This document shows, piece after piece, positions 1 to 64,000 of a stretch of 64,000 bases of DNA. The number at the start of each line of letters is the position of its first letter. Within the stretch, counting starts at the first letter, position 1. The translations under genes were made by a program, and so were the position numbers. Location of the stretch: contig CM000153.2 of assembly GCA_000004695.1 (NCBI GenBank), forward strand, positions 128,001 to 192,000, given 5' to 3'. Below the pieces are notes generated by a model. It had not been told where the DNA came from. It ran no database searches and saw nothing but the letters and a program-made list of their open reading frames with translations. Origin of the DNA: Dictyostelium discoideum. Lineage: Eukaryota.

Positions 1-3000
1 ATTTTAGGGATTCTTTTGAATTTGGTAGTAATAATAATAATAATAATAATAATAATAATAATAATAATAATAATAATAATAATAATAATAATAATAATAA
101 TAATAATAATAATAATAATAATAATAATAATAATAATGAAGAAAAGTCAAATAACGAGACTGAAAAGACTTTAGAAAGTAATGGAGATACTACTACTACT
201 ACTACTACTAATAATAATAATAATAATAATAATAATAATAATAATAATAATAATAATAATAATAATAATAATAATAATAATAATAATAATAATAATAATA
301 ATAATAATAATACCAATAGTAGTAATGATATATATATGAATTCACCATCATCAACATTATCATCACCAGGTAATGCAGGCAATAATTTACCAATTGGATG
401 CACCAAACCAAATGTACCAAAATCACCATATAGTCCATCACCACCACATCTATATAAATCAAATTCAACCTCTTATTTAAAATCTTCTTTTTTTAGTGGA
501 AATGGTAGTAGTAGTAGTAGTAGTAGTACTACCACCACCAATATTAATAGTAATAATTCAAATACAAATACTTATAGTACAAGTACAAATGTAAAGAAAA
601 ATAATAGCAATACAAATAGTAATACAAATAACAATACAAATGGCAATACAAATACTAATAGTAATAGTAATAAAAAAAATATAAATTCAAATAGTTCAGA
701 TAATATAATAATTAATGATACAGCAGATATAATGAATAGAAGAAGGGATAGATTTAAATCATTTTCATGGACAATTGGAGAATCTAATTCAAATAGTAAA
801 TTTAGTGAACTATCAATGATATCATCAAAATGTAAAAGTATAAAGAGTGAATTTACACCATTGTTTGAAACGTTGACAGTTTTTGATGAATCTGATAAAA
901 TCAGGCATAGTCTCATACAGAATCATTATAAGACATTATTGATTCAAAATCCAGCATCACCAAATCGTACATTATTAACAAACTTACTCCAAAGAAGAGG
1001 TCATAATTTAACAACTTGTCCAATAGATATTAATCATGTATTACAATTATTACAAAAAGAATCTTTCTCTTTATTCATTTTTGATCCAAATGAATCAATT
1101 ATTAATAATACTTCAAATAGTATAAGTAGTAATGAACCAATATCATTATCTTCATCTTCATCTTATTATAATAATAATAATAGCAATAACAATTCTGTAA
1201 ATAATAATAATAATAATAATAGTGGTAATTCAACAAATAATAATAGTCCATCAAGTCATACACCAAATTCACCAATGATATTCCAACCAATTGTTTCAAA
1301 TATTTGTAGTAATAGTGGTGGTAGTGGTAATAATAGTCCTCATCATATTGATAATAATAATAATAGTAATCAGCAACAACAACAACAACAACAACAACAA
1401 CAACAACAACAACAACACCAACACCAACAACAACAACAACAATCATCATCAACAACAGCAACAACCAACAATTCTTGTACATTAAATCAACAACAACAAC
1501 AACAACAACAACAACAACAACAACAACAACAACAACAACAACAACAACAACAATCACAACCAACAACACCAACACAATCAACACAATCACCAACAACATC
1601 AATTAGTTTTAGTAAAAAAAAGAATTTAACGATAAATACAAGTTTTAAAACATCACCAATGTCATCACCAAAATCATTTAATAAACCATCACAATCACCA
1701 CAAAATATATTTAATAATTTCTCAAATACATATAATCCAAACAATATTGAATTTTGTAAAATATTGAAATCAAAGTTAACAGAATTTGAAACTGTGATAG
1801 TATTGACCGAGAGTACTGATCCATCTGAATTTTGTCAATATATTGATGCGGGTGCAACTGATTATATACCTCAACCAATCTCACCAATACTTTTAGATCT
1901 TCGTTTAACCACTTGTCAAAAGTTGGTTAATAATAATCTACATTTAAAGAAGGCTGAATCATTAAAGGATGCAACTCGTAAGATGGTAACTTGTATTGAA
2001 AATTCACCAGACTGTGTCGAAATTTGGGATCCAAGTGGACATATTCAATATTTGAATCTAGCTTTCTCTGAGATGACTGGTTTTGCTCGTTGGGAATTAT
2101 TAGGTAAAGAATTTTCAAATCTAATAGATAATACTGAAATCATTCCAAATATGTGGGCAACACTAACCGATAAGAAAACTTGGAATGGTTTCATTAGAAC
2201 TCGTCATAATAATAATACTTTAATCTATTTCGAGGCTTCAATCTCACCGGTATTAGATCAATTTCAACAAATTCTCTATTATAATTGTACAAAAAGAGAT
2301 GTAACTCAAAAAAGAATAGATGAAGAATCAAAAACTTTAGAACAAAATAAAATCATTGAAAAGTCACGTTTACGTCTATCAATGATGAGTCATGATATTA
2401 GAACTCCAATGTCAAATATCATTGGTATGGCTGATCTATTATTAGATACTTCTCTATCTCAACATCAACATCATTATCTTGAAATTATTAAAAATTCTTC
2501 AAATACTTTATTAACAATAATTAATGATATTTTAGATATTTCAAAGGTAATATATAATATATAATTAAATATATTTTTAATCTAATATTAATTTTTTATT
2601 ATTTTTTTTTTTTTTTTTATACTATTCAGATTGAAGCAGGTAAATTAGATATTGATTATGAAAGTTTTGATTTTAATGCAACAGTATCACAAGTTGTAGA
2701 ATCAATGGCACAAAGAGTACAATCTAAAGGATTAGAATTATTAAGTTATGTTGATCCAAAGATACCAAATATATTGATTGGACCAAGTAGTAGATTGAAT
2801 CAAATTTTAACTAATCTTTTGGGAAATTCTTTGAAATTCACTGATAAAGGTGAGATTTCAATTTGTTGTCTATTGAATGATGAAACTGATAGTGAATATG
2901 AAATAAAGGTTGATGTAAGGGATACTGGTATTGGTATAAAGAAAGAAGCTTTACCATTACTCTTTAAAGCTTTCACTCAAGCTGAAGGTACAATCACTAG

Positions 3001-5086
3001 ACAATATGGTGGTTCAGGTTTAGGTTTAGCAATTTGTAAAGAGTTGGTTCATTTGGCTTTCAATGGTGAAATCTCTGTTGAAAGTCAGTATGGTCATGGT
3101 AGTACTTTTACTTGTATTTTAAAGTTTAAAAAGTTTTTACCATCTGATTCTCAAAATTTATTACCTGCAAGTTCACCATTACAACAACAACAGCAACAGC
3201 AACAACATCAACAACAAACACAATTTCATCAACATCAACAACAAACACAATTTCATCAACATCAACAACAACAATTACAACATCAACAACATCAACAACA
3301 TCAACAATTACAACAACAACAGCAACAACAACAACAATTACAACAACAATTACAACAACATCAACAACACCAATTACAACAACGTCAACACCATCAACAA
3401 CAATTACAACAACAACAACATCATCATCATCAACAAGTTCATTTACAACAGCAACAACAACACGAACATGACGCTCAACATAATCAACATATACAACAAC
3501 AACAACAGCAGCAGCAACAACAACAACAACAACAGCAGCAACATGAACATAATAATAATGGCCACCATAATAGCCATGGCCATAATCATCATGGTAGTCA
3601 TCATAATCATAATCATCAACATAATAATAATAATAATAATATTACAATTAATAAATTACAACATCAAGAAAAGAAACAAAAATCAAATGAACAACAATTA
3701 GAATCAATAACTGAAAATAGTTTTTCACCAATAGTTGAACCAATGGTTATTAGTGATCCTGATACACCTGAGGCATTAAATATATCACAATCACCATCAC
3801 CACAATCGATTCATAATGGTACTACAATCAATCAACAACCAACATCACCATTGAATACACTCGGTTCGAAATTTGATTTCTCTGGTGCAAAAATGTTATT
3901 CATTGAAAGAAATGATACAAGTAGAGGTAATTTATTTAAACAATTATTGGCTTGGAATATTCAATTAGAATTGGTTGAAGATGGTGAAAGTGGTTTTCGA
4001 AAATGGAAACAATCTATTGAATCAAATTCACCTTATTCTATAATTATTATGGATTTAAATACTCCTGGTGTTGATGGTGCTTCATTACCAATGAGAATAA
4101 AAAAAGAATTAGAATTAATGCAACAACATCTACAACAACAACAAGAACAAGAACAACAACAGCAACAAGAACAACAACAATCCGAGTTACAAAAACAACC
4201 AGATGTTGAAAATAAAAATTCATCTCAAAATAATGACAATAATAATAATAATAATAAATCAAATAGTAGTGGTGGTAATCAATGTATATATCGTTCACCA
4301 ATTATTATGTTAATGCCAATTCAATTTTTAAATTCACAATTAGAAGATAATTTAAAAGATGCTGGTGTTTGTGCTATACTTTCAAAACCAATTAGAATGA
4401 GCCAATTGGCTGATGTTTTCATGATGTATTTAGGTCCAAATAGTGAACACAATAATAATAATAATTATAATAACAATAATGGTAATGGCTATTTGAATGG
4501 TGGAGGCGGTGGTGGTGGTAGTGTTAATGGAACTGGAAATGGAACATTACAAGTTGGAATGAGTAATGATGGTGGTAATGGATGTGGTGTAGTCTCTTTT
4601 TGGAATAAACAGAGAAGAGCATCCGCTGAAGAACAAGAACAAGATCCATCGAAATTATTGGGTAAAGTTTTAGTTGTAGATGATAATCATATCAATATTC
4701 AAATCCTTTCTAAAATGCTTCAAACTGTTGGTTGTGAAGTTGATTCAGTGCTAAGTGGTGCCGATGCTTTGGCAAAAATTAATCAATCATCTGGTGACTC
4801 TTATGATGCAATATTCCTTGATATTCAAATGCCCGACATGGATGGATTCCAAGTATCTAGAAAAATTAGAGAAAGAGAGAAAAAATTCTCATTACCAAGA
4901 GTAGCCATCATTGCAACAACAGCAAACGTTTTCAAAGAAGATCAATTAAAATGTTTTGATGCTGGTATGGATGATTTCATTTCAAAACCAATTAAAAGAG
5001 CTGAAATTAAAGAAATCATTAAAAAATATGGTAAAAATGGTAATCATCAAAGTGGTAGTGCTTATAGTCTTTATAAATTAAGTTAA
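1..5086 (+). CDS. Hybrid sensor histidine kinase of the Dictyostelium dhk family. The CDS is 5'-partial: the reading frame is open from nt 3 through (AAT)n/poly-Asn into the track ORF at 336. Exons are join(<1..2546,2630..5086), with intron 2547..2629 (GTAATA...TTCAG, phase 0).
   Basis: Exon 1 carries a PAS-like segment ([45 protein letters not shown]) and the HisKA H-box [18 protein letters not shown]. Exon 2 carries the HATPase_c N, G1 and G2 boxes ([19 protein letters not shown]; DTGIGI; [11 protein letters not shown]). It then has a degenerate receiver ([11 protein letters not shown]...[13 protein letters not shown]) and a canonical C-terminal receiver ([15 protein letters not shown]...[13 protein letters not shown]...FISKPIK). 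Long poly-Gln and poly-His tracts are encoded by CAA and CAT runs. Splicing across the 83-nt intron keeps the reading frame, since both track ORFs (336.. and 2705..) are in the same frame. Confidence 0.85.
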
Positions 5087-63610: not shown

Positions 63611-64000
63611 TTTATTTATTTATTTGTTTGTTTTTTGGGAAATTAAAAATAAACAAAAAAAAAAAAAAAAAAAACGAATAATTTTTTTTAAAAAATTTTT
63701 CTTTTTTTTTTTATTTTGTTTTTTTAATTTTTTATTTTTTATTTTTTATTTTTTATTTTTTATTTTGGGAAAGAGTTAGTAAATTGTAATAATATATTTA
63801 ATTTTATAGAATTTTGAATACTTATTTTTATTATTACTTATTATAATAATAAAATTTTTTAAAATTTTTTTTTTTTTTTTATCTGATAAAAAGTTTTAAT
63901 TATCACTCATTTTTTTTATTTATCTAATTAATAGATAGACCCACTATTGCCAAGAAATTGTGTTAACATACAATAATCAAGAAATAAAAATGTTGATAAA

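Follow-up and report, generated by a model that had tools for sequence, protein, structure and literature searches.

The closest described system for the DNA considered here is the genome of Dictyostelium discoideum AX4, which, as described by Eichinger and colleagues in 2005, reportedly has a coding fraction, gene density and intron size similar to those given below, together with the same composition, intron style and poly-Asn and poly-Gln (poly-N/Q) tracts. The stretch analysed here, referred to as the window, comprises 64,000 nucleotides (nt) of contig CM000153.2 (positions 128,001 to 192,000 of the forward strand, assembly GCA_000004695.1), for which an earlier note had proposed Dictyostelium-like eukaryotic chromatin that is misdescribed by a prokaryote-style track of open reading frames (ORFs). 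A second point of reference is the genome of another species, D. giganteum, with 75.8% A+T, 65.7% coding DNA, one gene per 2.41 kilobases (kb) and a mean intron of 129.5 nt (PMC13487327). As a comparison of genome style only, its coding share, gene density and intron mean match the 66%, 2.37 kb and 138 nt of the window.

The window belongs to a nuclear chromosome of D. discoideum, AX4 lineage, of which it is an unremarkable and already annotated stretch, and it is not merely DNA of Dictyostelium-like character; we regard this identification as practically certain. By exact look-up, AX4 RefSeq/GenBank proteins (EAL/XP accessions) were found to be identical residue for residue to 12 conceptual products of the window. 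Six of these were read without splicing (DDB_G0283003, DDB_G0283067, DDB_G0283071, orc1, the HP1-like protein and the BRCA2-repeat protein), and the other six arose only after removal of GT-AG introns (mcm8, atg12, superoxide dismutase 2, the S53 peptidase, osbp7 and ctu1). With the AX4 reference locus around DDB_G0283003, DDB_G0283067 and DDB_G0283071 compared at the protein level, no difference was detectable. Furthermore, the DNA was collinear with record CM142510.1 (5,576,411 base pairs (bp)) of the D. discoideum assembly GCA_054883475.1, at about 5,359,700-5,423,500, with 99.5-99.8% identity; the alignment covered window 3203-23864 and 29134-64000 (three loci), and 1-3202 and 23865-29133 lay outside it. 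Judging by the length of this record, the chromosome is probably number 4, with the window about 150-220 kb away from one of the record's ends. The claim of Dictyostelium-like chromatin was borne out by both comparisons. The window is a known segment of a model-organism genome, with no new biology and nothing prokaryotic hidden in it.

A source in another dictyostelid or in a wild D. discoideum isolate, instead of the AX4 laboratory lineage, had to be considered, given that close relatives of the window proteins exist in other D. discoideum isolates, D. citrinum, D. firmibasis and D. purpureum, and that about 60 small sites differ between the window and GCA_054883475.1. However, all 12 testable proteins are identical to AX4 entries, and the orthologues of other isolates differ in length (IscU with 203, 198 and 195 against 194 amino acids (aa), and MCM8 with 820, 811 and 806 against 812 aa). 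Nearly all of the small differences are non-coding homopolymer-length changes or A/T substitutions, as is typical of assembly or technology noise; the sole coding-region difference is one substitution at 30287, and the compared coding sequences are otherwise identical. An origin outside the AX4 lineage is thus considered highly improbable. It was also observed that non-coding A or T homopolymers are longer in the window than in GCA_054883475.1 at about 30 sites, by up to 27 nt, and shorter at a single site only, by one base near 43341. Such a one-sided difference looks less like real polymorphism than like homopolymer compression in one assembly or the other.

The composition is extreme. A+T amounts to 78.7% (G+C 21.3%), within the 75-80% given in the earlier note, and 2-kb bins span 14-29% G+C, with 25.5% in coding against 12.9% in non-coding DNA (87% A+T). 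Runs of A or T of at least 10 nt number 219, the longest being 60 nt, and tracts of (AAT)n/(ATT)n or (CAA)n/(TTG)n occur by the dozen; the long repeats of the window are microsatellites and the tgr-like duplications described below, and nothing else. The earlier description of intergenic and intron DNA as essentially homopolymer and microsatellite went too far, since A/T runs of at least 5 nt hold only 33% of non-coding bases and perfect microsatellites 8%, the rest being simply very A+T-rich. The prediction that CAA and AAT repeats give poly-Gln and poly-Asn was confirmed by runs of at least 10 N or Q in 10 gene products (up to 36 residues). Codon counts were similarly skewed (AAT 1627 vs AAC 149; CAA 811 vs CAG 33), and TAA accounts for 24 of 26 stop codons. 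About one gene per 2.4 kb is present, and the spacers between genes have a median length of about 500 nt and about 12% G+C.

Gene models were built by enumerating, for each gene, the GT-AG intron sets that leave an open frame of exactly the length called in GCA_054883475.1, which mostly gave a single solution; the URB1/Npa1 gene was solved junction by junction, with the best donor and acceptor for each. In this way 27 models were obtained, the number that had been claimed, 17 of them spliced and 10 unspliced. The earlier count of at least 20 genes in need of splicing was therefore too high, and its qualitative point, that most genes need it, holds. All 33 modelled introns are of the GT...AG type as foreseen, that of the SNARE-like gene (24208-24345) having been taken from direct reading of the sequence. 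They measure 70-400 nt (median 105, mean 138 nt) and contain 11% G+C. Within the range of 70-360 bp proposed before, the lower bound stood, and the upper bound was exceeded by a 400-nt intron in osbp7, a gene whose product, once spliced, equals the AX4 protein exactly. The gene types named in advance (dhk, agtA, tgr-like, sodC-like and tpp1-like) were all recognised by their Pfam domains, with exact AX4 matches for the superoxide dismutase and the S53 peptidase. Apart from the tgr-like array, the features of the window are as follows.

3..5086, + strand: hybrid histidine kinase gene dhk, its 5' end cut by the window edge, frame open from base 3; two exons
2547-2629, + strand: dhk intron (83 nt), with its junction between ILDISK and IEAGKL at the conserved HisKA end, restoring HisKA 6-66/66
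5295..7115, - strand: flavin amine oxidase, 554 aa, two exons; intron 6839-6994 (156 nt), the only GT-AG solution giving 554 aa
10075..11277, + strand: DDB_G0283067, GlfB_C-domain protein (Pfam GlfB_C), 400 aa, unspliced; exact AX4 match XP_639307.1
11924..12950, - strand: Snapin/Pallidin-domain protein with poly-Q, 222 aa; intron 12220-12577 (358 nt), unique GT-AG solution, with Snapin_Pallidin 2-88/89 across the junction
13272..13856, + strand: DDB_G0283003, IscU/NifU_N iron-sulfur scaffold (Pfam NifU_N), 194 aa, unspliced; exact AX4 match XP_639309.1
14399..15635, + strand: S26 (IMP-type) signal peptidase with poly-N N-terminus, 295 aa; modelled introns 14915-15037, 15185-15326 and 15489-15572
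15819..17984, - strand: agtA-type Skp1 alpha-galactosyltransferase, 648 aa; introns 17181-17303 and 16278-16373, unique solution
19313..20900, + strand: Pro/Gln/Glu-rich protein, 409 aa; intron 20330-20687 (358 nt), unique solution, the splice being based on the gene call only
21067..23575, - strand: mcm8, 812 aa; intron 23197-23266 (70 nt); exact AX4 match XP_639313.1; Pfam MCM_OB, MCM, MCM_lid and WHD_MCM8
23994..24491, - strand: small tail-anchored SNARE-like protein, 119 aa, two exons; intron 24208-24345 (138 nt), largely an (ATT)n tract
25182..32521, + strand: URB1/Npa1 ribosome-biogenesis protein, 2293 aa, six exons; introns 25221-25313, 25923-25996, 26180-26279, 26501-26586 and 28635-28739
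32759..33341, - strand: atg12, 124 aa; introns 33124-33226 and 32882-32986; spliced product exactly the AX4 "autophagy protein 12"
34156..35598, - strand: poly-N protein, 480 aa, unspliced; span in the gene call equal to 3 x aa + 3
36286..38961, + strand: WD40 protein (Pfam WD40) with Q35 and N34 tracts, 891 aa, unspliced; gene call
39136..39543, - strand: BRCA2-repeat protein, 135 aa, unspliced; exact AX4 match XP_639319.1
39774..41139, - strand: extracellular Cu/Zn superoxide dismutase 2, 427 aa; intron 40911-40992 (82 nt); exact AX4 match XP_639320.1
42065..42742, - strand: HP1-like chromo and chromo-shadow protein (Pfam), 225 aa, unspliced; exact AX4 match XP_639321.1
49075..50241, + strand: orphan protein with an N30 tract, 388 aa, unspliced; gene call, no Pfam match
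50285..52683, - strand: sedolisin (S53, tpp1-like) peptidase, 767 aa; intron 52352-52446 (95 nt); exact AX4 match XP_639327.1
53322..53939, + strand: DDB_G0283071, 205 aa, unspliced; exact AX4 match XP_639328.1
54130..56025, - strand: origin recognition complex subunit 1 (orc1), 631 aa, unspliced; exact AX4 match XP_639329.1
56491..58870, - strand: oxysterol-binding protein 7 (osbp7), 422 aa, six exons; introns of 77, 159, 242, 400 and 233 nt, one at 57941-58340
60331..62020, - strand: MRG/Eaf3-type chromodomain protein, 379 aa, five exons, unique solution; MRG 2-188/190 and MSL3 chromo-like domain after splicing
62346..63610, - strand: ctu1 (cytoplasmic tRNA 2-thiolation protein 1), 360 aa; introns 63210-63283 and 62867-62974; exact AX4 match XP_639332.1

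The gene calls of GCA_054883475.1 agree with our models in span and length, the tgr-like call aside. Among the 10 unspliced models, six are exact AX4 proteins and four have a span of 3 x aa + 3 in those calls. Intron positions are shown for the six spliced genes whose products equal AX4 proteins; osbp7, for example, has a unique intron solution and gives OSB7_DICDI exactly, and the ctu1 product is 95% identical to Ctu1 of Polysphondylium violaceum, gap-free at both exon junctions. The remaining exon models are inferred. Seven more of the 17 spliced models are backed by domain continuity across the junctions. Several Pfam domains became complete only once the exons were joined, namely Npa1 2-330/331, Nucleotid_trans 4-208/208 (4-159 before), HisKA 6-66/66 and Amino_oxidase 1-443/443 (217-443 before), and the Snapin_Pallidin, Peptidase_S26 and MRG matches span exon junctions in the spliced products. 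For URB1/Npa1, the five best junctions yield exactly the called 2293 aa, the Npa1 domain runs unbroken over three of them and NopRA1 lies in the last exon.

Nothing found contradicts the identification, although some points weigh against this account of the genes. Eleven of the 17 spliced models have predicted exons that lack exact look-up support, and certainty is lowest for the S26 peptidase, the 409-aa protein and the tgr-like copies. The S26 peptidase model is the top-scoring of 119 solutions for the called length and less certain than the others, with Peptidase_S26 crossing its junctions, and no Pfam domain was found in a scan of the spliced 409-aa product. The protein index gave no self-match for D. 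discoideum proteins with long poly-N/Q runs (dhk, URB1, agtA, the 891-aa WD40 protein and others), the products missed by look-up have runs of this kind, and a homology search with the URB1 ORF in this index considered 8000 word candidates and returned no match; proteins poor in low complexity were all found exactly in the same index. The index thus appears to lack, or to be unable to retrieve, Dictyostelium proteins with long low-complexity runs. Therefore, a failed look-up of such a protein is no evidence against its model.

The misreading by a prokaryote-style caller was assessed on a recomputed set of ORFs, each at least 60 aa long and beginning with ATG, GTG or TTG. There are 99 of these, and 53 start without ATG (46 with TTG and 7 with GTG). 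They comprise only 39 in-frame exon pieces (about 41 with two tgr-like pieces); of the others, 33 run antisense to exons, 13 are in a wrong frame and 14 lie in non-coding DNA. The artefacts suspected in the earlier note, GTG or TTG starts and antisense ORFs of Tyr, Ile or Val, are accordingly real, with 53 of the 99 starting at TTG or GTG and about 58 of the 99 lying antisense, out of frame or in non-coding DNA. Their homopolymeric runs reach 34 residues for poly-Tyr (208-468), 21 and 28 for poly-Val, 21 for poly-Cys, 53 for poly-Ile and 40 for poly-Leu, and each of them coincides with an (AAT)n or (CAA)n tract or its complement. True genes are mis-started too, as for orc1, which the ORF track extends 57 nt upstream to a TTG. 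Because six exact AX4 matches appear only after GT-AG intron removal, the stop-to-stop ORF track must fragment genes.

If the ORF track were correct, the window would be A+T-rich prokaryotic, phage or plasmid DNA. The best matches of the dhk kinase core have at most 50% identity and are mostly metagenome histidine-kinase fragments (41-50%, two with bacterial names), with no self-match in the protein index, and PADLOC gave weak matches of about 18 bits. These fit such an origin superficially, but the six proteins that equal AX4 entries only when spliced do not, and neither do a gene set specific to eukaryotes (ORC1, MCM8, HP1, Atg12, URB1, MRG and SNARE), intergenic DNA of 12% G+C in which homopolymers reach 60 nt, and gene strands that alternate without operon-like runs (in order, +-+-++-+--+--+---+--+-+----). 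The Pfam domains found are likewise typical of eukaryotes (MCM8, ORC1, HP1, Atg12, Npa1/NopRA1, MRG, SNARE, OSBP and TgrO1). The earlier note had named a bacterial or phage best match as the finding that would speak against a eukaryotic origin; megablast of window 36000-60999 gave no phage or plasmid DNA match. The PADLOC matches were marginal, on low-complexity or AAA segments, and indicated no defence system. Megablast, PADLOC and strand order thus agree with the earlier statement that operons and prokaryotic defence or mobile systems are absent, and we give a prokaryotic, phage or plasmid origin no probability at all. No tRNA was found in the window by ARAGORN, no Rfam RNA at gathering thresholds and no transposon domain in Pfam scans of the window proteins.

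For the eukaryotic chromosome segment, a consistent picture emerges. The window carries about 27 independently transcribed, mostly housekeeping genes on both strands, separated by spacers of about 12% G+C. Seventeen of these genes are interrupted by short, extremely A+T-rich GT-AG introns, and the (AAT)n and (CAA)n trinucleotide tracts are translated as poly-Asn and poly-Gln. A stop-to-stop caller accepting ATG, GTG and TTG therefore cuts the genes at their introns, invents TTG or GTG starts and reports long spurious repeat ORFs in the other frames and on the other strand. The window needs to be flagged as eukaryotic, and findings built on the bacterial ORF track, such as ORFs with TTG or GTG starts, homopolymeric Tyr, Ile, Val, Leu or Cys "proteins" and seeming pieces of genes, need to be discarded or re-read with spliced models.

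The histidine kinase shows what splicing changes in a single gene. One spliced polypeptide contains PAS, HisKA, HATPase_c and a C-terminal receiver (Response_reg) in this order, and the ORFs alone split it into a PAS-HisKA and a HATPase_c-receiver part. The window holds 1666 of the 1709 aa called in GCA_054883475.1. The gene is probably dhkL, as judged from the 1709-aa call and from Q54RP6, reported as DHKL_DICDI (PMC4061105), which stands in one accession series with Q54RP4 and Q54RP2 of the window. A dhkL knockout has been reported to cause precocious development (PMC2873529).

AgtA, the known Skp1 enzyme, consists of a GT77 domain and a WD40 propeller (PMC13278062). The agtA-type product of the window has this architecture, with an N-terminal GT77 domain (Nucleotid_trans 4-208/208) and a C-terminal propeller of five WD40 repeats after splicing; the gene was assigned by architecture, not by an exact sequence match. 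The Cu/Zn superoxide dismutase begins with a signal peptide, contains two Sod_Cu stretches and has a hydrophobic C-terminal end. In AX4 the identical protein bears the name "Extracellular superoxide dismutase [Cu-Zn] 2", and the window protein is therefore a paralogue of SodC and not SodC itself. The S53 peptidase is annotated in AX4 as "peptidase S8 and S53 domain-containing protein"; Pro-kuma_activ was found in it, and the catalytic domain had no Pfam match on the partial ORF that was scanned.

Tgr proteins of the TgrB1/TgrC1 type are transmembrane allorecognition proteins with Ig_TgrO1 and IPT/TIG extracellular domains and an intact frame that ends in a transmembrane segment. The window carries tgr-like copies that share these extracellular domains and differ in that copy C is frameshifted, copy A has an in-frame TGA and copy B is a fragment. 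The array and the small ORF at its edge are as follows.

43885-48843, - strand: tandem array of three tgr-like units
43885..46319, - strand: tgr-like copy C, with signal peptide exon, 78-nt intron 46156-46233, Ig_TgrO1 exon and TIG repeats; frame broken near 45534-45540
46710..47100, - strand: tgr-like copy B, fragmentary, in which exon 1 adjoins part of the TIG region (repeat families D7 and D9)
47360..48462, - strand: tgr-like copy A; 209-aa product (47687-48462) ending at the in-frame TGA 47687-47689, homologous open sequence continuing to about 47360
43558..43914, + strand: Ser/Pro-rich 118-aa ORF from a GCA_054883475.1 gene call only, sharing 30 nt with the 3' end of the tgr-like ORF; doubtful

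Copy C lacks 4 nt relative to copy A, which gives the frameshift, and conceptual read-through yields Ig_TgrO1 and TIG; a C-terminal hydrophobic segment was not found in it. The breaks in the array are no sequencing errors, because both assemblies agree there. The 209-aa product of copy A is recorded for the newer assembly only, and its TIG match crosses the TGA in conceptual read-through. In both copies the break falls at the same place, inside the TIG domain after ...NFYIKN, and beyond it the frame stays open for 55 codons in copy A and 551 in copy C. Such coinciding breaks might reflect purposeful short secreted isoforms, or recoding by read-through or frameshifting, in a kin-recognition family; little probability is attached to this idea, and recent duplication followed by independent decay explains the breaks far better. 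The tgr-like copies are probably pseudogenes or truncated paralogues. The tgr-like call of GCA_054883475.1 (729 aa, 44013-46841) differs from our description in fusing copies B and C through improbable introns; it was rejected in favour of three decayed copies, as 15,741 weak solutions and no credible introns were obtained for it. Neither Pfam nor exact look-up gave a match for the 118-aa ORF, and its gene call, made on sequence of low complexity, may be spurious.

Three smaller observations concern other parts of the window. The spacer at 7116-10074, between the divergent amine oxidase and DDB_G0283067 genes, is free of genes over 3 kb, about 6x the median spacer, with 13.7% G+C; when checked for hidden ORFs it showed low-complexity Phe/Lys/Leu frames only, and it had no Rfam match. 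The SNARE-like gene, whose product scores 29.4 bits for the SNARE domain against a cut-off of 26.8, has no call in the GCA_054883475.1 data, as it sits in the stretch between the compared loci. Finally, the 480-aa poly-N protein matched no Pfam family in the scan, and its C-terminal about 120 aa (34156-34620) share 74% identity with a hypothetical protein from Acytostelium subglobosum (171 aa), the only match found for them. This protein is a small conserved dictyostelid domain joined to about 350 residues of poly-N and low-complexity sequence.

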